Shown in pieces: positions 4,593-43,800 of a DNA stretch of 64,000 nucleotides. The position numbers and the translations under genes were made by a program. Source of the stretch: Gammaproteobacteria bacterium. GTDB taxonomy: Bacteria; Pseudomonadota; Gammaproteobacteria; UBA9339. Numbering within the stretch: the stretch's first letter is position 1; each line of letters starts with the position of its first letter. The notes beneath the pieces were generated by a model. The model was not told the DNA's origin. It did not search any database and saw only the letters and a list, made by a program, of their open reading frames with translations. Location of the stretch: assembly GCA_041664965.1 (NCBI GenBank), contig JBAYJT010000002.1, positions 2,877 to 66,876 on the forward strand. Direction: 5' to 3'.

Positions 4593-6347
4593 ATGCCAAA
4601 ACAATTGAACAACGATGAAATCATCCGAGCTGTAATTCCAGAACACATTTGCCAGCTAATTGGCCAAAAATATTATAACAAAATACCCACAGCTGTTGAT
4701 TTTGAACACATCATTCACAGTAAAACATTTTTAGAAAATCCTACTGACGACATCGCCCTCTTTAGCGATCACGGCTTAAACCATGTAAAAAACGTAGCTG
4801 CACAAGTACCCACAATTTTGCGATGCGTACAGGGAATTCACATACCAAAACGTAGTCCAACCCGACTGAAATTCATGGAGCAATATGGCATTATTTTAGG
4901 TTTTATTCACGACATAGGCATGTCGAATGTTTCAGCCTTTGGACGAGCTATGCATGGAGAATTTGTAGCACAAGAAGTTTTCATGCCCAATTTTGAGCCT
5001 ATTTTTAAGCTTCTTTGGGAAGAAAATATAGGAAATATCCCTTGGCTTCTATCTAATTTACATAGCGAAAAACACTTGGTAGAAAAACCTAAAGTTGTCT
5101 TTAGAGAACTTCTCGCCCTCGCCTGTTGCCATCGTAAACAGCTAGTCCCTGTTAGTGTTTTAAACAGCGCCTCCGCTTTACAAGCTAAAGTACAATTTTT
5201 CATATCGAACACTTTAGAACATCAATATGAAGATAAAAAAAATCCAAAAAACACACCCAAAACTGACAAATCAAATAATAAAATTTTAAAACGTCTTGGT
5301 CTATTCTATAAAAATTTCCCTGAAGCATCCTTTAGTTGGTTAAAAAGCAACGACAACAAAATTCAAGAGTTAATTTTCGATATTGTAGACACAATAAGAA
5401 TTGTGCGTTGCGCTGACGGGTTGCGCCAACGCGGTACAGAACTGAAAACGTCAGCACAATTTCAAATTTTTATTAATCAATTTACAGCAAGCGCTGTTTA
5501 CTCTTTAACAAGCAAAGATGGTCGCATGTATTTTCTGGAATCAGAAAAGTCAGTAAATAGCGGCGAATCTAATGTTGCTAATATGTATTTCACCAAAGAA
5601 GGCGATTTGCGCTTTTCCTTCCATCGCGGCTATTTTCATTCAGAAGAAGCCACTGAACGTGGCCTTTTGTCTCTACAAAAATTAATCATTCAACTGGACA
5701 ATGACATATCCGACACATTTAGCCGTATTGGACTTACTAATGACAAAGAAAAATTTAAAGCACATAAACGCCCCTCGCTGCTTCTAGAAACAACCGAAGA
5801 TAGACCTAAATTCACTAAGCGTTTGGTTGAAAACATAGTAAAAGCCAAACCTGAACTCGCTAAATTCATAGTTCAAGTACCATCTTTGAAATTAGCCTCA
5901 CCTACAGAATATTCTGCGTATATGAATGCTGATTCCGTTACTTGGAATACGAAAGAAAAACGCTCTTTTCTGAAAAAAATTGCAGCAAACGGCCATAAAA
6001 TCACACAGATTGACATAGAAAAAGCTTTTACCCACAGCAAAATAATTCAAATTAAAGCCAACGCTTCTGTGTTTGACGCTAAAACATCACCTGCATTCGT
6101 CTATTTCCCATTTTCTTACGGCTTAGAGGGCTACCCTACTGGTAGCTATAGTCCATTCAAAGTCGCTCCCTGGACGCCATTAGGAAGCACTGGGGCTATT
6201 CGCGGCGACATCCGCAATGCCACTGTTGTAGCCAAAAAAAATGTGAAATTATTAATGATACCCCAAGAAGATTATTTGCAATACTGGCATGCAATGTATT
6301 CGGTAGACGAGTTCGTAAAGGCAATCAAAGAAAAGAAAATAATGTAG
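4593..6347 (+). CDS. HD-domain protein with a C-terminal cyclic-nucleotide-binding-like region
   Basis: It contains the metal-ligand pattern DHGLNH...GFIHDIGM...CADGLRQRG (H...HD...D). The C-terminal GSTGAIRGDIRNATVVAKKNVKLLMIPQEDY resembles the phosphate-binding cassette of cNMP-binding domains. A GGAAGG RBS is present. Confidence 0.5.
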   Translation: MPKQLNNDEIIRAVIPEHICQLIGQKYYNKIPTAVDFEHIIHSKTFLENPTDDIALFSDHGLNHVKNVAAQVPTILRCVQGIHIPKRSPTRLKFMEQYGIILGFIHDIGMSNVSAFGRAMHGEFVAQEVFMPNFEPIFKLLWEENIGNIPWLLSNLHSEKHLVEKPKVVFRELLALACCHRKQLVPVSVLNSASALQAKVQFFISNTLEHQYEDKKNPKNTPKTDKSNNKILKRLGLFYKNFPEASFSWLKSNDNKIQELIFDIVDTIRIVRCADGLRQRGTELKTSAQFQIFINQFTASAVYSLTSKDGRMYFLESEKSVNSGESNVANMYFTKEGDLRFSFHRGYFHSEEATERGLLSLQKLIIQLDNDISDTFSRIGLTNDKEKFKAHKRPSLLLETTEDRPKFTKRLVENIVKAKPELAKFIVQVPSLKLASPTEYSAYMNADSVTWNTKEKRSFLKKIAANGHKITQIDIEKAFTHSKIIQIKANASVFDAKTSPAFVYFPFSYGLEGYPTGSYSPFKVAPWTPLGSTGAIRGDIRNATVVAKKNVKLLMIPQEDYLQYWHAMYSVDEFVKAIKEKKIM

Positions 6348-6367
6348 GGAATAGGCATTCCTACTCC

Positions 6368-8266
6368 CTACTCGTCATTATGGGTTTGATCGGTTGAAAA
6401 AATCTTGATTTTCGCCTTCTGCATCCAGCCATTTATCAAAGTGGAATATTCGTATTGCCCTATTTTGCTCTTTAACCCTTCGGCAAAAGAGGAGCGTTCT
6501 GCAGATGGCACAGTTTTCGTATCGCCAAGATAAACTTTATCCAAAATTAAAACAGCCAAGTCGCCATTAGATAGCGGTAGGGAATAAGCATGCATATTCC
6601 CTACCATAGTTAATTTAAACGCGGCTTTTAGCATTTCGCTAGACAATCTCTTGTCTTGTCTAGTTACCCCAGCTGCGCTTTGCAAAGTTAAATTATATTT
6701 CTTAGCTACTTCCACTGGTTTAGAACCGCTATTTAGCGCTGCCAAAATATTTTTCGCAGTATCTTCTGCCATTTTTTGAGCTTCTTCTGAACGTAATTTT
6801 TGTTCTATAACGCTTCGCACTTCAGCCATAGACCTTACTTTAGCAGGAATGTGTTCTTTAAGACGTAAAACCACTACATCGCCCGATGCAATTTCTATTG
6901 GGTTGCTGTTGTAACCCTGCTTCAGAACAGCATCGCCAAAAGCAATTTTGAAAATCTTGGGGTTCGCAGCAAGACCAGATTTTCCGCCTGTGCGGGTAAA
7001 AGATTCTGTCTGACGAATGGGCAAATTTAGCTCTTTGGATGCGGGGAGCAAAGAATCAGAGTTTGTGTAGGTCAAATCAGTTAATTTGTCATTAGCTGCA
7101 GTAAAAAGCTCTAAAATTTTGCCTTGCATATAGGCTTTTTCAACTTTGGCTTGAACTTTGCTCAAAGGCTCTGTTTGAGCAGCATCAACTGCTAAAATTT
7201 TCACAACGTTGTAGCCTTCTTGCGTACGAAATGCTTCTGAAACTTGTCCGGTTTGCAGTTTTTCCACTTCTGGGGCAAGGTCAGATGCCATTTGGTTGTG
7301 TGCTAACTTTGTAATGCTATAATTACTTGGCATCAATGTAGCAAAATCACCACCAGAACGCGCATCTTTTGCTACGCCATCCAGTTTAGACTTAGCATTT
7401 GCAATGTCGCTTTCTTTAGAACCTTCTGGAAGTTTTATTAAAATTCGCGCCACTTGCCAACGTTTGGGCTGCGTATAAATATCGATGTTTTTTTCATAAA
7501 ATTTATTAAGGTCACTTAAACTTGGCTTCTTCACTGTTTTGGCTAACTCGCTTCCGAGCAGTTCAAGATATTCAATACTAACGCTTTCTTCCGTCATAAA
7601 TTCTTCTTGATGTTTTTTATAATACTCTTGTATTGCTGCATCAGTAATTTTAATCTGTGGTAAAAATTTATTTTGCAGAAGAACAAAATAACTAACATCG
7701 CGTTTCTCACGATCAAATGCTAAAGCTTCTTCAACCTCGCTCGGTAAAACAAAAGCGCTATCTGAGACAGCAGCATTGAGCTGGGCAGAAATCATCGTCT
7801 TACGCGTTTGGTCGAAAAAAGCTTCTTCGGAGTAAGACATGTTAGTAAGGATATTTTGAAATTTTTCGTAGGAAAACTGCCCATCTACTTGAAAATAAGG
7901 CATGTGTGTAACAATAGCACTGACTTGCTGATTACCAACATAAAGACCTAAATCTTCAAAATCACTAGATAGGACAGTATTGCGAATTAAATCTTGTAAA
8001 ACCTGCTGCTTTAAAGATTTTTGAGCTTCTTGATCGAGATAAAACTTGCTACCTTGTTTAGCGACCATGGCTTGACGAGCTCTTTCATAAGCCGCCTTAA
8101 ATTCTTGCTCTGTGATTTTTGTGCCGTCCACTTTAGCAACACCATCTTCAGCAGAATTTCCTCTAAGATAGTTTTGAATTCCCCACAATGCAAAAGTTAT
8201 ACAAATTAAGGCTACGATTACACCAGCAATAATGCCCTGAGTGCGTTCTCGCATACTTTGCAACAT
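6368..8266 (-). CDS. ppiD: periplasmic chaperone / peptidyl-prolyl isomerase PpiD
   Basis: It has the N-terminal anchor MLQSMRERTQGIIAGVIVALI... and is 632 aa. It sits in the conserved position next to hupB. Confidence 0.88.
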   Translation of the reverse strand: MLQSMRERTQGIIAGVIVALICITFALWGIQNYLRGNSAEDGVAKVDGTKITEQEFKAAYERARQAMVAKQGSKFYLDQEAQKSLKQQVLQDLIRNTVLSSDFEDLGLYVGNQQVSAIVTHMPYFQVDGQFSYEKFQNILTNMSYSEEAFFDQTRKTMISAQLNAAVSDSAFVLPSEVEEALAFDREKRDVSYFVLLQNKFLPQIKITDAAIQEYYKKHQEEFMTEESVSIEYLELLGSELAKTVKKPSLSDLNKFYEKNIDIYTQPKRWQVARILIKLPEGSKESDIANAKSKLDGVAKDARSGGDFATLMPSNYSITKLAHNQMASDLAPEVEKLQTGQVSEAFRTQEGYNVVKILAVDAAQTEPLSKVQAKVEKAYMQGKILELFTAANDKLTDLTYTNSDSLLPASKELNLPIRQTESFTRTGGKSGLAANPKIFKIAFGDAVLKQGYNSNPIEIASGDVVVLRLKEHIPAKVRSMAEVRSVIEQKLRSEEAQKMAEDTAKNILAALNSGSKPVEVAKKYNLTLQSAAGVTRQDKRLSSEMLKAAFKLTMVGNMHAYSLPLSNGDLAVLILDKVYLGDTKTVPSAERSSFAEGLKSKIGQYEYSTLINGWMQKAKIKIFSTDQTHNDE

Positions 8267-36261: not shown

Positions 36262-38214
36262 CTAGATATTCTTAACTTTGGCAATCTGTTCTTGAAATAC
36301 TTTCACTTCTGCCAAAGCTTGTTTATAGAATTTGCTAATTATGACAGGGTCTTTCCCTTCCAGCAAATAATCATCTAATCGGGCACAAGCTTCTTGTGTA
36401 CGCTTCGCTCCACAATAGCTAGCCAAACCACGTATTTTATGCGTCATAACACGTAGGGCTTTAAAATCTTTGTTTTTATATATTAAAGTGAAAGATTTGA
36501 TTTTTCGCGGCAAATCTTTTTTAACGGAAGCAATTATAGTACGAATCATCTGTTCGTTATTTCCATAATTTTTACGCATCAGTACAAGGTTAATAATTTT
36601 ACCTGTAGTTGTGCTTTTCTTATCTGTCAAGACCTTGTTTGTTTTAGTTGGTTCTCTCCATCCCGAAATAAAAGTAACACAAAGATCCCTGGCTTTTTCT
36701 TCCGTTAAAGGCTTACTCAGCACAGCATTCATACCAACTTCCACACAATGTTTGGAATATCCTGCACTGCTATGAGCTGAAAGCGCAACTATCGGCACAA
36801 GATTATCTTTATTAACTTCTTGCTCACGAATACGCCTAGTTACTTCGTAGCCATCCATATCTGGCAATCCAATATCCATCAAAATAAGATCATAACTATT
36901 TGCTCTGGCTAGCTTTATAGCTTTAACACCATTGGATGCTATATCCACCGCGCATTTCATACGCCCTAAAATAATCCTACTCAGCTTCCCCATGAAAGCG
37001 TCATCTTCAACCAATAAAATCTTCCACTTTTTTCTTTTACTATTGGGCTTAGTTCTTTCCAGCACTGGCAAGTTATGAAGATTAGATATATCTCCTTGGG
37101 TTCCATGCTCTATACCAGAATCATCCTGTAATTTAGCCTCTTGCAAAGGAATCAAGCATATAAAAGCAGAACCTTTGCCCTTTTTACTCTCTACAGAAAT
37201 TGTACCGCCTAATTCTTCCACAAATTGCTTTACTATACTTAAACCTAAACCCGAACCAGGACAAGTCCCATTGTAGGAAGGAACTAGGCGCACAAAGCGC
37301 TCAAATATCTCCTCATTCTTTTCATCCGGTATCCCAATCCCTGTATCCCGCACAATGAGTCGAACGGTTATTTTATCAGCCTCTTTTTTAGCTAATTCTA
37401 CAGAAACCCTAACCTTACCCACAGAAGTAAATTTTAAAGCATTGTTAGTTAGTTCTAAGAGTATTCTCTGCAGCCTCATGCGATCCCCAAGAACATAACA
37501 TGGCAGATCCTTAGAATAACCGTATATAAATTCTAGCTTCTTCTCAGCAGCTTTAGCCCCATTCAATAAAACAATTTTATTTAGAGCATCTTTCAAATTA
37601 AATTTTTTATTAAGAAGCGGTAATTCACCAGACGTAGTTCGAATTGTATCCAAAATTTCATCCAGAAAATCAAAGAGAGTGCGGCCTGATGCTACAAGAT
37701 TATCGGCATATTCACGAGTTTTTTGCGGTTTATCAGCTTCTGCTTTAATAAGTTCTGCAAAGCCCACAATACCCGAAAGCGGAGTGCGAATATCATGACG
37801 CATGTTTTCTAAGAATTGAGATTTTGCCTCGTTGGCAGCCTCTGCTTGCTTTAATGCTTTCTCAAGCTTTTGTTCGGCAAGCTTGCGATCGGTGATGTCG
37901 AAACTTAATACTCTTATACCAACGCATTTTCCTTTATCAAAAAGAGGTTGTTTTATGGATAAATAATACCGCCCTTTAAATGGCTCTTCCTTTATAACTT
38001 TTGTTCCCACCCTCATTACTTCTTTGCAATGTTCCCAAGATGGAAGATCGATGTTTGCAGCATTTACAGAACCACGAGATATAGATGCAACCATTCGATT
38101 GTTTTGTACGAGATAGTCCCCATTAACGTCAATCACACTGTAATTAAAGTCTACTGAATCTAGGAAAAGCGAAAGTACATCGCCATTAGTTGTATCAAAA
38201 AGTTGATTGTCCAA
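36262..38214 (-). CDS. soluble hybrid sensor histidine kinase (PAS-HisKA-HATPase_c-REC-Hpt), copy 1
   Basis: It has a TTG start 6 nt after AAGGGAGGA. Motifs are the H-box NMRHDIRTPLSG, the N/G boxes DTGIGIP and GSGLGLSIV, the REC LILMDIGLPDMDG and the Hpt MTHKIRGLASYCGA. No hydrophobic segment is present. Confidence 0.88.
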   Translation of the reverse strand: MDNQLFDTTNGDVLSLFLDSVDFNYSVIDVNGDYLVQNNRMVASISRGSVNAANIDLPSWEHCKEVMRVGTKVIKEEPFKGRYYLSIKQPLFDKGKCVGIRVLSFDITDRKLAEQKLEKALKQAEAANEAKSQFLENMRHDIRTPLSGIVGFAELIKAEADKPQKTREYADNLVASGRTLFDFLDEILDTIRTTSGELPLLNKKFNLKDALNKIVLLNGAKAAEKKLEFIYGYSKDLPCYVLGDRMRLQRILLELTNNALKFTSVGKVRVSVELAKKEADKITVRLIVRDTGIGIPDEKNEEIFERFVRLVPSYNGTCPGSGLGLSIVKQFVEELGGTISVESKKGKGSAFICLIPLQEAKLQDDSGIEHGTQGDISNLHNLPVLERTKPNSKRKKWKILLVEDDAFMGKLSRIILGRMKCAVDIASNGVKAIKLARANSYDLILMDIGLPDMDGYEVTRRIREQEVNKDNLVPIVALSAHSSAGYSKHCVEVGMNAVLSKPLTEEKARDLCVTFISGWREPTKTNKVLTDKKSTTTGKIINLVLMRKNYGNNEQMIRTIIASVKKDLPRKIKSFTLIYKNKDFKALRVMTHKIRGLASYCGAKRTQEACARLDDYLLEGKDPVIISKFYKQALAEVKVFQEQIAKVKNI

Positions 38215-38253
38215 TTGATTTCCTCCCTTAAAAATTGTTTCACTTAAACAACG

Positions 38254-39462
38254 CTAGTTGCTTGGAACAACTTTTTGTGGCTGAGCAAATGTTGTACTAC
38301 CAGTAACTGCCATCTCTTGTTGCTGCGCCCTCTCCGCTTCCACAGCACGAATTAATACACTAAAGGGATCAACCTTCAGAGCACTAGGATCACTTATGTG
38401 TATTCTATATGAAATGTGAAATCCAATGAATTTTTGCGAATACTCCAGTGTAACAGGAGCAAACGATTTACTTACCTCTCCTTCGTAATTTTTTCTAGCT
38501 GCATCTATACTGGTTACTAATGTTGCTATAGCCTCCGCCCTTTTTGGTTCGTTAAATTGGATAACACATTCCCCCTTCCACACATGATTTTCTTTTGTAA
38601 AGGACATCTTTTCAGAAAAATCCGGAACCGGAGGAGAAGGCGATCGACCATTAAAAAAAGAACTTTTCCCTAGCAAACGCGGAGGACTACTTGGGACGGG
38701 GGGCCTACTAGAATTACTTCCTGATCCAGGTCTTACTGTTGGTGAAGGTGGTTTAAATTCATACCCCAAGTATAACGCACCAGGATATGGAGGATTACCC
38801 GTACCCACCAGCTTTTGTAACACATATCCGCTAGCGCTATTAAAACTAGGCGCAGGGTAGCAAACCACCTTGCCACAACATAAAAAAGCAGCACTTTCTG
38901 TAAAAAGGTATTCCTTAGCAGCTTCTACCGCTGCCCCTTTGTTTTGTTTATCTATTTGGTATCTATGAGAGTGTTCAAGAATAAGATCATCAACAATCTT
39001 CTTAAAAACTGGATCGGCACCATATAGCTTTGCTACATCTTCCTTCGCTCTAGGATATAGTTCATTATTTGTGATGTCTCGCCAATATAAAATATCTTCC
39101 TTCGATTTAAAGCCAAATGCTGGATCCAAATTATCTAACCTGCTAGCATTTTTGGCTATCCATTCATCATCTGCTTTTTTAGCTTCACCAGGCCCAACAT
39201 ATACTTCGAACAATCCCTCTCCGCTTAGCACTACTCGTACTTTCGAAATGGCCAATCGGGGCTGTCCTCCCTTTTCAATTGGCGCCAAAAGCCTATTCCT
39301 ATTAACTAGACCAATAAAATCATCAAGTTTTGCTCCAACCTGAACATTTTCACCTTTTCTATTTAGCCCCATGCTTAAAAACAAGTATAGCTCCACCGGT
39401 TGACCACCATTTTTTGTGTCAACAAAGGTAGACAAACTATCTGTAAATTTAGCTGTAAACAT
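38254..39462 (-). CDS. cyclodipeptide synthase (CDPS)-like protein with Pro/Ser-rich linker and unknown C-terminal domain (tentative)
   Basis: LFLS30MGL, E-Y185-LFT-E189-SAAF and VC-Y202-P203 match the positions and spacing of the AlbC catalytic S37, Y178, E182 and Y202(-P in XYP-type CDPSs). Residues ~228-283 are P/S-rich, followed by a ~120-aa unknown domain. Confidence 0.5.
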   Translation of the reverse strand: MFTAKFTDSLSTFVDTKNGGQPVELYLFLSMGLNRKGENVQVGAKLDDFIGLVNRNRLLAPIEKGGQPRLAISKVRVVLSGEGLFEVYVGPGEAKKADDEWIAKNASRLDNLDPAFGFKSKEDILYWRDITNNELYPRAKEDVAKLYGADPVFKKIVDDLILEHSHRYQIDKQNKGAAVEAAKEYLFTESAAFLCCGKVVCYPAPSFNSASGYVLQKLVGTGNPPYPGALYLGYEFKPPSPTVRPGSGSNSSRPPVPSSPPRLLGKSSFFNGRSPSPPVPDFSEKMSFTKENHVWKGECVIQFNEPKRAEAIATLVTSIDAARKNYEGEVSKSFAPVTLEYSQKFIGFHISYRIHISDPSALKVDPFSVLIRAVEAERAQQQEMAVTGSTTFAQPQKVVPSN

Positions 39463-39643
39463 GGTATTTATATCACTAAAGTTATACGAAATATTTTTAA
39501 ACCGTTGTTAGTCCAATCTAATTTAGGATTGAAATTAAAAGGGGAATCAATACAAAACTAGACACTTAAAACCACTCTTAGGCCTTAAGGAAAATGCCAT
39601 TATCCCTTATAATCTTATCCCTAAACAAACCTCTCACGCGCAC

Positions 39644-39706
39644 ATTATAACACAAAAACAAAGTAAGCATTAAACAGCCAAGTCTTACTCTTAAGATTAT
39701 TTTAAG
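39644..39706 (-). promoter_or_regulatory. conserved promoter region of CDPS-like gene 1: TTAA-N7-TTAA box, candidate -10 elements
   Basis: The minus strand reads cgcTTAAAATAATCTTAAGAGTaagacttggctgTTTAATgcttactttgtttttgTGTTATAATg. The same block is conserved at 43536-43597. Confidence 0.45.
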
Positions 39707-39733
39707 CGAATATTTAGCGTTGATGAAACACCT

Positions 39734-39784
39734 AAAAACATGTCTACATGTTTTCCTTATAAATCAAAAAGTTATAAAAATAAG
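39734..39784 (+). repeat. family-A repeat, copy 7
   Basis: The sequence is AAAAACATGTCTACATGTTTTCCTTATAAATCAAAAAGTTATAAAAATAAG. It contains the 8-bp inverted repeat AAAACATG/CATGTTTT. Confidence 0.8.
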
Positions 39785-39810
39785 ATCGAAAAAGGTCAAA
39801 AAATCGACTT

Positions 39811-41847
39811 CTAGATCTTTCTCACCCTCAAAATAGCTTTTTGAAAATCGCGGATTTCGACCAGACATTTTTTGTAGAGCTTTCCGATAGTCGAAAATTC
39901 ATTCCCTTCCAGCAAATAATCATCTAGTTTAGCACAAGCTCCTTGAGTACGAGCAGCTCCACAGTAGCTAGCCGAACCGCGTATTTTGTGTGTCATAATC
40001 TGTAAAGTCTTCAAATCTTTATTTTGATATGCACAAATGAAAGAATTTATTTTATTTGGTAAATCTTTTTTGATAGAAGCAAGTAAAGTCCGAACTGTCT
40101 TTTCATTATTTCCATAATTTTTACGCATCAGTGCAAGATCAATAATTTTACCTGTAACTTTGTGTGATTGGCCTCGAGGAGGTTTTTTTTCTTTTGTGGA
40201 TTCTGTCCATCCCGGAATAAAAGCACTACAAATATCTCTCGCTTTTTCTTCCGTGAAAGGCTTACTTAGCACTGCATTCATACCAACTTTCATACAATGC
40301 TGCGAGTATTCAGCGCTAGTGTGGGCCGAAAGCGCCACTATTGGCACAATATGGTCTTTCTTAACTTCTTGCTCACGGATATGCCTAGCTACCTCGTAGC
40401 CATCTATATCCGGCAATCCTATATCCATCAAAATAAGATCGTATCTATTTTCCCTAGCGAGATTTACGGCTTTAGCACCATCCACTGCTATATCTACCGC
40501 ACATTTCATACGCTCTAAAATAATTCTGCCTAGTTTCCCCATAAAAGCATCATCTTCAACTAACAAAACATTCCAATTTTTTCCTTTACGAGTTGTTTTT
40601 TCTTTTTGTTTTAGAGGCAAAATGGGCCTCATCAAAAAAGCTTTTTCTACATATCCTTCCACCTCCGCCGGCATATCAGAAGCATCCTGCAGCATGGCTT
40701 CCTGCAAAGAAATTACGCAAGTAAAAATCGAACCCTTACCCTCCTCACTCCTAACAGAAATTTCGCCCTTTAAATCCTCAAGAAATTGCTTAACAATAGT
40801 AAGCCCCAAGCCGGAACCTTGAGATATCCCTTTGAAAGATGGGGTTAAACGCGTAAAGCGTGTAAAAATGTCTTGCTTTCTCTTTTCAGAAAAACCCATG
40901 CCCGTATCTGCAACAATAAGTTTAATAGCTATGTCCGTTCCTTCTTTTTTAGCCAACTTTACGGAAATTTTAACTTCACCTTTGGAAGTAAATTTCAAAG
41001 CATTGCTCGTTAATTCTAAAAGGATCCGCTGTAACCTAACTGGATCTCCCACTATATACTCTGCTAACTTTTTATCGTAATCGTAGACAAGATTTAGTTT
41101 CTTGGTAGCTGCTTTAGCTTTCTGCAATAAAATAACTTTATTGAAAGCATCTTTCATATTAAATTTTTTCTTGAGAAGCGGAATCTCGCCTGATGTAGCT
41201 TTAATGGCATCTAGAATTTCATTGAGAAACTCAAATAATGTACGACTTGAGGCAATAAGATTATCTATGTATTCGCGCGTTTTTTCTGGTTTATCAGCCT
41301 CTGCTTTAATAAGTTCCGCAAAACCTAAAATCCCCGACAGGGGTGTACGCAAGTCATGTCGCATGTTTTCTAAAAACTGCGTTTTTGCTTCGTTGGCAGC
41401 TTCAGATTTCTTTAGAGCTTCTGCAAGCTTTTGCTCAGCAATTTTTCGGTCGGTGATGTCGATAGATACACCAAGAAGTCCAATTACATCTCCCTCGGAA
41501 TTGCGCAAGGGTTTTTTGATGCTAAAAAAATAAGTTTTAGTGCCATCAGGATTGAGATGAACTTCTTCCAATAATTCGGACTTATTGCTCTCCATAACTT
41601 TTTTGGAATTTTCCCAAGCTGGGTCAGCGCATAAATCAGAAGTGTGCTTGCCTATAAGTTCCTTAATGGAAGACAAACCTAAAATAGCCAACTCCTTGTC
41701 ATTTCCCCCAAGAAAAATCCCCTCTTTATCCACCCAATAGAAGGCAATTGGAAAATCTTGTAGCAAACTATCCATGGCCGCTTCTTTAGCTATGGACACG
41801 GCTTTTTGAGCAGTTAAATCTCGTATTGAATTGAAAGAATTTGGCAT
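39811..41847 (-). CDS. soluble hybrid sensor histidine kinase (PAS-HisKA-HATPase_c-REC-Hpt), copy 2
   Basis: It has an AAGGAG RBS. Motifs are the H-box NMRHDLRTPLSG, DTGMGFS and GSGLGLTIV, the REC LILMDIGLPDIDG and the Hpt MTHKIRGSASYCGA. No hydrophobic segment is present. It is a paralogue of 36262..38214. Confidence 0.88.
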   Translation of the reverse strand: MPNSFNSIRDLTAQKAVSIAKEAAMDSLLQDFPIAFYWVDKEGIFLGGNDKELAILGLSSIKELIGKHTSDLCADPAWENSKKVMESNKSELLEEVHLNPDGTKTYFFSIKKPLRNSEGDVIGLLGVSIDITDRKIAEQKLAEALKKSEAANEAKTQFLENMRHDLRTPLSGILGFAELIKAEADKPEKTREYIDNLIASSRTLFEFLNEILDAIKATSGEIPLLKKKFNMKDAFNKVILLQKAKAATKKLNLVYDYDKKLAEYIVGDPVRLQRILLELTSNALKFTSKGEVKISVKLAKKEGTDIAIKLIVADTGMGFSEKRKQDIFTRFTRLTPSFKGISQGSGLGLTIVKQFLEDLKGEISVRSEEGKGSIFTCVISLQEAMLQDASDMPAEVEGYVEKAFLMRPILPLKQKEKTTRKGKNWNVLLVEDDAFMGKLGRIILERMKCAVDIAVDGAKAVNLARENRYDLILMDIGLPDIDGYEVARHIREQEVKKDHIVPIVALSAHTSAEYSQHCMKVGMNAVLSKPFTEEKARDICSAFIPGWTESTKEKKPPRGQSHKVTGKIIDLALMRKNYGNNEKTVRTLLASIKKDLPNKINSFICAYQNKDLKTLQIMTHKIRGSASYCGAARTQGACAKLDDYLLEGNEFSTIGKLYKKCLVEIRDFQKAILRVRKI

Positions 41848-41891
41848 GATCAGCTCCTTGCTTGGAAGGTTATCTATATTATCTTAACAAT

Positions 41892-43373
41892 CTACTTGGA
41901 TGTTGGTCTAGTATTATTTTCAGCACCTCTAGTTGGAGAAGTAGGAGGAGATTTTGACTTAGATTTTTCCTGGGGAATGGGGGCGCGCCCACTTTCCTCT
42001 CTGCTAACAGCAGCAGCAGCTGCTGCAGCTGCTGCTACGGTAAAAAATAAAAACTTTCCACCACCACTAAGACAAAGTTCGGCCACAGGAGAACGAGTGC
42101 TACTAGAACTCGAGGTAACTGCGTCTTGTTGCGAGACTTCTTCAAGAACTGGGGCTAAATTACTGTTACCATGACTAGTTCCTGCACCGGATGGTGTGTC
42201 TGATAACAGTGTTGGATCGCTTGGTGGTGAAGTACTGAAACTACTGTTAACTTTACTTGCTGAAATACTTTCACTAACACTAGTAGACGGTGATTCAGCT
42301 CTTGAGGATGAAGAATTGGAAGACGTGGTGCCGGTAGAAGTACTGGAAAGTGCAGTACCTTCCTCATGACTTCGAGGAGTACTAGACCCGCTAGAAGATG
42401 GTGGTGATTGGCGACCAGATGGTAAACTATGGCTAATACCTGCTAATAATTGTTCTATCTTTAGTTTTCGCAGCTCGAGTTCTCCTGGGGTACCAACATC
42501 CAGCAATTCGTTGGTCAGTTTAAAATCCTTATAAACCTCTCCAATTCTTGCCCTTGCTATATACATTGGAGATCCTAATACCCCCCGATAAACTTCTATA
42601 GGAAATTTTTTCCATTGCTCACCATGTAAAAATATTTGAAAAGCACTCTCCTCCTGCATGTAATGTCCACAACAATCACTGATATTCTCCCAAGTTACAG
42701 TGTGATCTTCTATTTTTTTCCGCACGGCTGTCTTCTTAGCTGCTATTTTTTCGGAAAATCTACCTTTAACTTTGCCTAAGTTTTTTCTAAAACCGCTTAC
42801 ATCGTTCTGATTGGGAGTTGACCAGCTCCTAACTACGCCCAAGCACCTCTTAAATTCAGGCTCGCCAATAACATCTGACCAGTCAAGACACCATTCCTTC
42901 TCTCTACCTTGTCCTTTGGCAAAATCCTGCAATAACTTAACAACTACTTGGTTTTGTTTTTGCCATTCACTCCAATACAGTTTAGATATTCCAGCAGCTC
43001 TTATCTCAGCTGCCCCTAAGGTATCACCTTTTTCCCAGATACGTGGCATAACATTAAATCTATGTAAATGAGTGGTATTTAAAAGCGTAATGATTCCTTT
43101 TCTATTGGGATATTTCTTAAGTTCATTAATAAGAGTGTTCACAATTGCCAAAAGGGGGGTTCCAGTCTGATCCTCAGGAGTAAATTTTACCGCTAACTCA
43201 TTAGAACTGGAACTTGAAGAGGAAGAGGATGAAGTTGGTACAGAAGTCGTTGTACTTGAACTTTGAGGATTGTCGCTTTCCAATGCTGGACAAAATCCGC
43301 CCATGCTAATAGAAAGCAAAATATCTCCATCTTTTTCAAAAGGTTTTGTAGAGCTAAATTGCAACATAAACAA
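41892..43373 (-). CDS. CDPS-like protein with poly-Ser insertion and long Ser/Thr/Pro/Ala-rich C-terminal tail (tentative)
   Basis: It has LLSIS23MGG, H-Y238-MQE-E242-SAF and EV-Y262 (20 residues after the Glu, as in AlbC). A poly-Ser insertion covers aa ~31-58. Residues ~316-493 are low complexity and include an A9 run. Confidence 0.45.
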   Translation of the reverse strand: MFMLQFSSTKPFEKDGDILLSISMGGFCPALESDNPQSSSTTTSVPTSSSSSSSSSSNELAVKFTPEDQTGTPLLAIVNTLINELKKYPNRKGIITLLNTTHLHRFNVMPRIWEKGDTLGAAEIRAAGISKLYWSEWQKQNQVVVKLLQDFAKGQGREKEWCLDWSDVIGEPEFKRCLGVVRSWSTPNQNDVSGFRKNLGKVKGRFSEKIAAKKTAVRKKIEDHTVTWENISDCCGHYMQEESAFQIFLHGEQWKKFPIEVYRGVLGSPMYIARARIGEVYKDFKLTNELLDVGTPGELELRKLKIEQLLAGISHSLPSGRQSPPSSSGSSTPRSHEEGTALSSTSTGTTSSNSSSSRAESPSTSVSESISASKVNSSFSTSPPSDPTLLSDTPSGAGTSHGNSNLAPVLEEVSQQDAVTSSSSSTRSPVAELCLSGGGKFLFFTVAAAAAAAAAVSREESGRAPIPQEKSKSKSPPTSPTRGAENNTRPTSK

Positions 43374-43535
43374 ACATCACAAACAGGGTCATACGTCCAA
43401 ATTTCAATTAGCACCAAGGTTAAAAAGGGGAATCAAAACAAACCAGGTACTGAAAAATCCACTGCTAGCTTTTCAGTAAAGTGCTGTTATTTATCCCTTG
43501 GCAGCTATGTCCCTAAATGAATTTATTAATTTAGC

Positions 43536-43597
43536 ATTGTAACACAAAAATAAAACAAGCATTAAGCAGTCAGGTCTTACTCTTAAGATTATTTTAA
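43536..43597 (-). promoter_or_regulatory. conserved promoter region of CDPS-like gene 2 (TTAA-N7-TTAA box; TGTTACAAT)
   Basis: The minus strand reads ctaTTAAAATAATCTTAAGAGTaagacctgactgCTTAATgcttgttttatttttgTGTTACAATg. Confidence 0.45.
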
Positions 43598-43626
43598 TAG
43601 GATATTTAATCGTTGATGAGAGTCCT

Positions 43627-43677
43627 AAAAACATGTCTACGTGTTTTCTTTATTTTTCAATAAGTTATATTTTCTTT
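43627..43677 (+). repeat. family-A repeat, copy 8
   Basis: The sequence is AAAAACATGTCTACGTGTTTTCTTTATTTTTCAATAAGTTATATTTTCTTT. Confidence 0.8.
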
Positions 43678-43800
43678 AGGGTACAGACGCGATTAATCGC
43701 ATCTGTACTTATGATCAAAGAGTTTTCTAGGCAAAAACAAATTTTCTGGTTATTATAATCGCCTGTGCTTTTAGTTTTAATTTTTTAACATGACGATGTT

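Follow-up and report, generated by a model that had tools for sequence, protein, structure and literature searches.

A divergent cyclodipeptide synthase gene precedes a hybrid histidine kinase gene

We analysed a 64,000-nucleotide stretch of DNA from a Gammaproteobacteria bacterium (UBA9339; GenBank assembly GCA_041664965.1, contig JBAYJT010000002.1, positions 2,877 to 66,876), here called the window, with a focus on a 402-aa open reading frame (ORF) on its minus strand. This ORF is locus WCW01_00550 of the NCBI metagenome-assembled genome (MAG), where it is labelled 'hypothetical protein'. Its first 236 residues are a divergent cyclodipeptide synthase (CDPS) of the XYP type, and the gene stands directly upstream of a gene for a hybrid histidine kinase with a PAS domain (HK650), a pairing that is conserved in related loci and apparently undescribed. 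The features of the two genes are listed below.

38254..39462, minus strand: 402-aa ORF with ATG start, comprising CDPS domain, linker and C-terminal domain
38755..39462, minus strand: XYP-type CDPS domain, residues 1-236 (from Foldseek, family profile and residue conservation)
39373-39375, minus strand: codon of Ser30
38908-38910, minus strand: codon of Tyr185
38896-38898, minus strand: codon of Glu189
38854-38859, minus strand: codons of Tyr202-Pro203
38614..38754, minus strand: Pro/Ser-rich linker, residues 237-283 (poorly conserved; predicted local distance difference test (pLDDT) < 50)
38653-38658, minus strand: Phe-Phe (FF) pair F269-F270, the sole invariant feature of the linker
38647-38667, minus strand: FF region, residues 266-272
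38299..38613, minus strand: C-terminal domain, residues 284-388 (AlphaFold2 (AF2) model on a six-sequence alignment)
36262..38214, minus strand: HK650, 650 aa, PAS-HisKA-HATPase-REC-Hpt (domain search)

The HK650 gene starts 39 nt past the stop codon of the CDPS gene and has its own Shine-Dalgarno sequence, AAGGGAGGA. Hydropathy analysis indicated no transmembrane segment in HK650.

Retranslation confirmed the ORF and its motif set as read in a preliminary description: S30 lies in LFLSMGLN, Y185 and E189 in Y185-LFT-E189-SAAF, and Y202-P203 in C-Y202-P203-AP. A Pfam search of the protein gave no match, PF16715 included, and TIGR04539 (tRNA-dependent cyclodipeptide synthase; curated cut-off 45 bits) matched residues 118-195 alone, at 22.6 bits (E 6.3e-5). 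Since it scores below the curated cut-offs, the protein is a divergent member of the family. PADLOC showed no defence-system match at the ORF.

The XYP-type assignment of the N-terminal part (∼235 residues), which the preliminary description had made from the motifs, was borne out by fold, family profile and residue conservation. An AF2 model built from two sequences (pLDDT 54 overall and 60-85 in the N-terminal domain) was compared with the PDB using Foldseek, and all of the first 46 matches were CDPSs, with XYP-type enzymes leading (Nbra-CDPS, 5mlq, E 1.3e-7; Fdum-CDPS, 5ocd, target TM 0.71, within a TM range of 0.68-0.71). As modelled, the N-terminal domain adopts the class-I aminoacyl-tRNA-synthetase-like Rossmann fold of CDPSs. 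A family profile of 22 sequences matched the CDPS structures of Rickettsiella grylli (Rgry-CDPS, 5mlp, E 4.7e-37), Fluoribacter dumoffii (Fdum-CDPS, 5ocd, E 1.7e-30), Ca. Glomeribacter (Ggig-CDPS, 6y4b, E 2.9e-27) and Nocardia brasiliensis (Nbra-CDPS, 5mlq, E 2.2e-25). The Ser, YxxxE and YP motifs of the family fall in register with those of the structures; the family 'iSm' motif stands opposite 'ISM' of Rgry-CDPS, and Y185/E189 align with YFLEE of Rgry-CDPS and YLIEE of Fdum-CDPS.

S30, W127, E189 and Y202 do not vary over 18 relatives (S30 in none of the sets of 18-22), Y185 and P203 vary hardly at all, and the catalytic residues remain invariant or nearly invariant in sets of 18-44 relatives; the Ser/Tyr/Glu/Tyr set is thus retained in homologues. 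CDPSs of the NYH subfamily have Asn40 and His203, whereas those of the XYP subfamily have a non-conserved residue at position 40 and Tyr202-Pro203. We take the residues of the 402-aa protein to have the roles of S37, Y178, E182 and Y202 of AlbC, with Pro203 as the XYP signature. The Tyr-Pro signature is present as Y202-P203 and the Ser+3 position is Leu33, with Asn34 at Ser+4 and a slightly ambiguous loop register at this XYP/NYH-diagnostic position. The NYH/XYP nomenclature is in use in Gondry et al. 2018 (PMC5816076). Pocket residues were mapped by alignment to the pockets tabulated in the supplement of that paper, which gave Y26, F28, V78, S80, W127, A192, F193 and V200 for P1, and L160, E163, H164, R167, A204, S206/F207 and N208 for P2.

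The linker is poorly conserved and the C-terminal domain is new

The Pro/Ser-rich stretch noted before is real (13 Pro and 12 Ser in 47 residues), with its start moved from residue 228 to about 237, as residues 228-236 (GALYLGYEF) form the conserved last strand of the CDPS domain. Its proposed likeness to SH3/WW ligands was not upheld: PxxP motifs are not positionally conserved (five in the linker of the 402-aa protein versus one in its closest homologue, P0002, with no shared positions), the protein has no PPxY motif and only the FF pair is kept. One PxxPxR motif, PSSPPR, is present. The FF pair is also invariant in P0006 to P0009, four other proteins with the C-terminal domain, and may be a short linear motif. 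FF pairs recur in the tails of characterised Legionellales CDPSs in the PMC5816076 supplement (CDPS 20, 21, 22, 28, 29, 30 and 31), and FF after a low-complexity linker is found in the C-terminal tails of many CDPSs of Legionellales, Rickettsiella and Diplorickettsia as well as in short metagenomic relatives (FFKxF).

The preliminary description had seen a C-terminal domain of ∼120 aa with no recognisable family, and sequence, profile and fold searches agree. The AF2 model from six sequences has a pLDDT of 77 overall and 86-92 in the core, with a beta-beta-alpha-beta-beta-alpha order, and the motifs NHVW, the Ser of SYRI and PF..LI are invariant. Pfam, NCBIfam and PADLOC gave no match for the C-terminal region, the domain sequence had no match in the PDB, and comparison of its fold with the PDB and BFVD returned nothing with E < 1e-3 (query TM < 0.3). 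The top PDB fold matches, Arp2/3 p34 and ACT-like domains, were rejected as noise at this query TM. The domain is confined to six 50%-identity clusters among ∼15 billion proteins and is a new domain, with no sequence or fold relative in these searches.

PAS kinases adjoin or are fused to related synthases

When 1.84 billion cluster representatives were searched exhaustively in HMMER, a two-sequence profile found 46 proteins, two of which are repeat-protein artefacts. Among the 44 aligned matches, 16 match TIGR04539 and one matches Pfam CDPS. Word-prefiltered searches returned only the 402-aa protein itself and one homologue for a single-sequence query, and only the 402-aa protein, P0002, P0006 and a paralogue encoded in the window for two alignment queries. 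These sparse lists are explained by a word pre-filter that misses the CDPS family, which the exhaustive search recovers. GTDB genome scans with two alignments and a search of PLSDB plasmids gave no relative, and a metagenome scan gave only the P0003 contig. Here and below, P numbers denote proteins and L numbers loci.

The closest homologue, P0002 (397 aa, 46% identity, on a 1.9-kb metagenomic contig), keeps both domains and not the linker, and its gene is followed by one for an HK650 homologue that is 71% identical over the PAS region. This arrangement recurs: a CDPS or CDPS-like gene is adjacent or fused to a PAS kinase in 13 of the 15 contexts examined, a linkage of synthase and sensor kinase that is conserved across taxa. 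A PAS/HisKA/HATPase kinase lies directly 3' of the CDPS(-like) gene twice in the window, in L001 and in the following loci, and in the relatives' loci the kinase gene often overlaps the CDPS gene.

L003: kinase directly downstream of P0049/P0006
L009, a 5.6-kb Rep3/ParA plasmid-like contig (5585 bp): kinase directly downstream of P0008
L010: kinase directly downstream of P0009
L007/L008: kinase directly downstream of P0013
L012: kinase directly downstream of P0043
L013: kinase directly downstream of P0012
L015: kinase directly downstream of P0021
L016: kinase directly downstream of P0024

The exceptions are P0007 (L004), which has a PAS kinase two genes upstream, and P0020 (L014), which has no adjacent kinase. 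Two different architectures unite synthase and kinase covalently. P0003 (782 aa) is a single-chain PAS-CDPS-PAS-HK fusion whose first PAS domain resembles that of HK678, the second hybrid kinase of the window (E 8e-23), and whose PAS-HisKA-HATPase part resembles HK650 (E 4e-59). Its CDPS part shares 44% identity with the 402-aa protein and has retained Ser, YxxxE and YP, and its domain order mirrors the gene order of the window. In the P0035 cluster (12 members), an Fdum-type CDPS (E 3.9e-48 versus 5ocd) is fused to PAS-HisKA-HATPase. None of the partner kinases has transmembrane-like hydropathy outside the catalytic core (maximum KD19 0.9-1.7).

Other genes recur beside these units. A PQ-loop (SemiSWEET-like) membrane protein of 86-96 aa is encoded directly upstream of CDPS-kinase units on three unrelated contigs (L007 9549-9839, L011 7740-8000 and L013 4403-4678), with 51% identity between the L007 and L011 proteins. 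In three CDPS-kinase loci (L002 6389-7429, L007 12714-13724 and L013 7077-8072), a gene beside that of the kinase encodes a REC protein of ∼331-346 aa whose C-terminal half is uncharacterised; the L002 and L007 proteins (336 and 346 aa) share 33% identity (E 2e-61), and this ∼335-aa protein possibly serves as the cognate response regulator, its output domain being new. Such genes are as expected for the transport and read-out of a small signal. Tailoring enzymes were found in none of the relatives' loci examined. L015 is surrounded by genes for a resolvase, SSB and CsrA and by many small ORFs, and this setting, together with the plasmid-like L009, suggests that the CDPS-kinase module may be mobile. 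In L004, a 409-aa ORF with no family match (5853-7082) lies directly upstream of the PAS kinase, at the usual position of the CDPS. It was considered as a candidate CDPS and left unclassified: an S...W...EE...YYP series is correctly ordered, with E values of only 0.03 to 8e-5 (single target).

The window carries two diverged copies of the cassette

A cassette of promoter and leader, CDPS-like gene and hybrid PAS kinase gene occurs twice in tandem in the window.

36262-43720, minus strand: tandem duplication of the cassette
39811..41847, minus strand: paralogous hybrid PAS kinase HK678, 678 aa, same domain order as HK650, PAS domain recognised
41892..43373, minus strand: 493-aa paralogue, a highly divergent CDPS-like protein (independent hidden Markov model (HMM) and cassette position)
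39463..39810, minus strand: region upstream of the CDPS gene, conserved with the paralogous cassette
43374..43720, minus strand: region upstream of the paralogous cassette, same blocks
39644-39652, minus strand: extended -10 TGTTATAAT, CDPS cassette
43536-43544, minus strand: extended -10 TGTTACAAT, paralogous cassette
39682-39695, minus strand: conserved block CTTAAGAGTAAGAC, common to both cassettes
39738-39751, minus strand: block ACATGTAGACATGT
39698-39717, minus strand: A/T direct repeat or 'PmrA-like box' CTAAATATTCGCTTAAAATA (15/18 match)

The gap between the 493-aa ORF and the HK678 gene is 44 nt and contains a Shine-Dalgarno sequence. The two kinases are 59% identical overall, with 21-35% identity in the PAS region and 50-88% from HisKA through HATPase and REC to Hpt. 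Between the 402-aa and 493-aa proteins there is no BLASTP match, and their genes have no detectable DNA similarity. The homology of the 493-aa protein is drawn instead from its position in the duplicated cassette and from an independent HMM of 44 relatives that excluded it, which scored 21-28 bits (E 8e-9 to 7e-11, Z=1) and placed its SISMG on the catalytic Ser and its HYMQEES on YxxxE; VYR replaces YP, and the support from hhalign is weak. The protein also has a Ser/Thr-rich (poly-Ser) insertion of ∼30 residues right after the catalytic-Ser loop, and a Ser-rich C-terminal half with an A9 run preceded by KFLFF (an LFF motif). It is 491 aa long in the NCBI call (P0047).

Divergence between the cassettes is thus mosaic: the upstream non-coding region and the kinase core were kept, whereas no likeness at the DNA level can be recognised any more in the CDPS gene and the PAS region. 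The two upstream regions are 75-79% identical over ∼250 nt and share an extended -10 element (consensus TGTTAYAAT), the A/T-rich direct repeat and a further block, ACAYGTAGACATGT. The leaders are ∼175 nt long (39463-39640 and 43374-43532, minus strand) and have the blocks TTTAGGGA and GATTCCCCTTTT in common. RNAalifold, applied to the two leaders only, gave a stem-loop with four pairs changed on both sides and a weak energy of -10 kcal/mol, and the conserved leader has no family in Rfam.

In the preliminary description the promoter was read as PmrA-box-like, a reading that the 15/18 match at the A/T repeat does not support, being not significant and in a non-canonical position. It is the only match in the window with up to three mismatches, where chance would give 0.35 and one or more turn up in 29% of shuffles, and it lies ∼45 nt upstream of the best -10 element rather than adjoining it. 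The corresponding position of the paralogous cassette has a similar sequence that falls below the same match stringency. The PmrA consensus used is the one reportedly given for L. pneumophila by Zusman et al. (2007).

The cassettes are flanked by kdsD-lptC-lptA-lptB and a divergent mlaFEDC operon, and the wider surroundings are chromosomal core (ligA, mutL, tldD, dnaG and rpoD). Two ORFs with no Pfam or NCBIfam match lie amid the housekeeping genes, at 4593-6347 (plus strand, 584 aa) and 21028-22551 (minus strand, 507 aa).

Synthase and PAS domain co-vary independently of the kinase core

To the mosaic divergence in the window corresponds a closer case from a single sample (ERZ21862108), in which the PAS kinases at L003 11312-12451 and L004 7210-8472 have cores that are 97-100% identical and PAS regions of 16-37% identity; the genes upstream differ too. 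Near-identical cores joined to unrelated PAS regions imply that, in a single population, domains were swapped or genes converted not long ago. In 11 CDPS/kinase pairs, a small sample of low-identity alignments, CDPS identity correlated with sensor identity (Mantel r 0.55, p 0.0014) and not with kinase-core identity (r -0.08, p 0.69). According to this pattern, the CDPS and PAS domain evolve as a unit, and shuffling takes place between this unit and the kinase core.

A possible synthase-sensor signalling module

We propose that the 402-aa protein and its kinase form a cyclodipeptide synthase-sensor signalling module, a reading whose chances we judge to be evenly balanced. The CDPS would take two aminoacyl-tRNAs and form an acyl-enzyme on Ser30, and release of a 2,5-diketopiperazine would be aided by Tyr185, Glu189 and Tyr202. 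By its layout, its gene is the first in an operon of two, the other encoding the cytoplasmic hybrid kinase HK650. The PAS domain would read the cyclodipeptide as its signal (the CDPS protein being a less likely one), and the signal would then be relayed through HisKA, REC and Hpt to a response regulator. In the duplicate, a conserved promoter and kinase core are combined with another CDPS and another PAS domain, which suggests that one pathway receives two orthogonal signals.

Several points weigh against this proposal. The 402-aa protein falls below the curated CDPS thresholds (TIGR04539 and PF16715), and its pocket residues match none of the specificity groups listed in the PMC5816076 supplement, so its cyclodipeptide product cannot be predicted. 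Neither a PQ-loop gene nor a stand-alone response regulator gene lies beside the window cassettes. In a cell-cell signalling system, fusion of the synthase with its receptor is unexpected, and the sensors are cytoplasmic, unlike receptors of the CqsS/LqsS type. Adjacency could also explain the co-variation with no functional link, if recombination broke the sequence at the PAS/DHp junction and carried CDPS and PAS along as a block. The C-terminal domain, with the FF motif, may serve in docking to the kinase or in its regulation, a role suggested by P0003, in which the covalent kinase fusion occupies the same position; the 493-aa paralogue and the short relatives, which lack the C-terminal domain, are kinase-paired all the same.

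Other explanations appear less probable. It is unlikely, if conceivable, that this is ordinary cluster-situated regulation, in which the CDPS makes a secondary metabolite for another purpose and the kinase responds to some cue of its own, its role being limited to operon expression and the product having no direct link to the PAS domain. Two-component genes are generally known to flank biosynthetic clusters often, and the conserved blocks upstream of both cassettes are operator-like; this explanation is opposed by the two different covalent CDPS-kinase architectures, by the co-variation of the CDPS with the PAS sensor and not the kinase core, and by the lack of tailoring enzymes in all of the loci.

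We give a still smaller chance to a non-enzymatic role, in which the CDPS-like protein is itself a sensor (for example of aminoacyl-tRNA availability) that gates the kinase by contact with the PAS domain, through the C-terminal domain or FF motif, any cyclodipeptide being a by-product. The contact of PhoU with the PAS domain of PhoR provides a precedent (PMC13577022). The fusions, which unite CDPS and PAS in one chain, the cytoplasmic sensors, the invariant FF pair and the conservation of the C-terminal domain in six kinase-linked proteins would all fit such a contact. However, the family has retained the full catalytic set, a sign that catalysis matters, and the PQ-loop transporter genes in relatives suggest movement of a small molecule.

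Least probable is the proposal of the preliminary description that the protein is a translocated effector acting on host aminoacyl-tRNAs, taken here as a Dot/Icm effector with an SH3/WW-ligand linker and a PmrA-type box that would consume these tRNAs or make a cyclodipeptide in the host: its PxxP motifs are not conserved in P0002, the box is neither significant nor in the canonical position, NCBIfam and Pfam gave no effector-family match, no Dot/Icm gene was found among the 20 window proteins scanned, and no link between CDPSs and Dot/Icm was found in the literature searched. A translocated protein would also not be expected to share an operon with a cytoplasmic histidine kinase or, in relatives, a single chain, a setting that fits a bacterial signalling module instead. 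Unspecific points in favour of the effector proposal are the PSSPPR motif, the polar, disordered C-terminal tails, a eukaryotic-like kinase/LRR/Ank protein on the contig of another relative, and IcmW-like (150 aa) and IcmX-like ORFs, recognised by eye, at L002 11694-14093, ∼4 kb from the P0003 gene. These Icm-like genes indicate that at least some hosts are Legionellales-like, and a host-directed role for CDPSs of intracellular bacteria has been proposed (Aravind et al. 2010, PMC2922099).

Returning to the synthase-sensor module, a fuller version can be put forward tentatively, with some doubt that all of its parts hold together. Legionellales-like XYP CDPSs and their adjacent or fused soluble PAS kinases might constitute an undescribed signalling family in which the cyclodipeptide is a dedicated PAS ligand, with a PQ-loop transporter and the atypical ∼335-aa REC protein added in relatives. 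The family might couple aminoacyl-tRNA supply and/or population density to the phosphorelay, with the duplicated cassettes as orthogonal channels and the new C-terminal domain with its FF motif as a docking element between synthase and kinase.

The coupling to PAS kinases and the fusions offer a testable answer to what CDPSs do, namely that cyclodipeptides are signals with dedicated receptors, and make the role of CDPSs in intracellular bacteria experimentally approachable. If this is true, cyclodipeptides would for the first time have a dedicated receptor system, in the form of a cognate synthase/kinase pair, its tRNA dependence would link translation capacity directly to two-component signalling, and orthogonal pairs of small molecules and kinases would become available for synthetic biology.

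Comparison with known systems

The 402-aa protein resembles the solved XYP CDPSs (Rgry, 5MLP; Fdum, 5OCD; Ggig, 6Y4B; Nbra, 5MLQ) in its fold, catalytic Ser, Tyr-x3-Glu and Tyr-Pro. It differs from them in having only ∼16-20% identity, inserts at residues ∼33-41 and 58-68, an additional C-terminal domain and a kinase partner. XYP CDPSs with a long C-terminal extension in PMC5816076 likewise have FF after a low-complexity linker (KKMSFFSSS and GITFFSNS); the parts of those extensions that were compared lack NHVW, SYRI and PF..LI, and the two domains may or may not coincide.

The preliminary description considered a C-terminal fusion unusual for a CDPS, which is partly right, as NYH CDPSs fused to P450, methyltransferase or ABC domains had already been reported (Gondry et al. 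2018, PMC5816076). As in those fusions (see also Skinnider 2018, PMC5767969), the CDPS is the N-terminal module of a larger protein. Their partners, however, are the tailoring and export enzymes of biosynthetic clusters, whereas the 402-aa protein carries a small alpha/beta domain of no known family, and relatives of it carry a PAS histidine kinase.

We found no description of CDPS-kinase modules in the literature searched. The parts of PMC13220807 considered here mention CqsA and, for cyclodipeptides as quorum-sensing molecules, discuss only promiscuous LuxR-type receptors.

The proposed module also invites comparison with autoinducer systems. In CqsA-CqsS of Vibrio and LqsA-LqsS of Legionella, a synthase gene likewise lies beside the gene of a sensor kinase of hybrid type, and a single phosphorelay can take input from several such pairs in parallel. 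Their synthases are pyridoxal-phosphate (PLP)-dependent acyl-CoA transferases, whereas the synthase described here is predicted from its sequence to be tRNA-dependent. Their sensors are membrane proteins that bind the ligand in the transmembrane region, whereas the partner kinases here carry soluble PAS domains and no membrane-embedded receptor. To our knowledge, there are no synthase-sensor fusions in the Cqs and Lqs systems. A further parallel in layout is bphO-bphP, in which an enzyme that makes a ligand or cofactor is encoded in an operon with a cytoplasmic PAS-type kinase: heme oxygenase produces the biliverdin that is bound by the bacteriophytochrome histidine kinase. The chemistry and domains of that pair are unrelated to those of the CDPS-kinase pair, so the likeness is one of analogy only.

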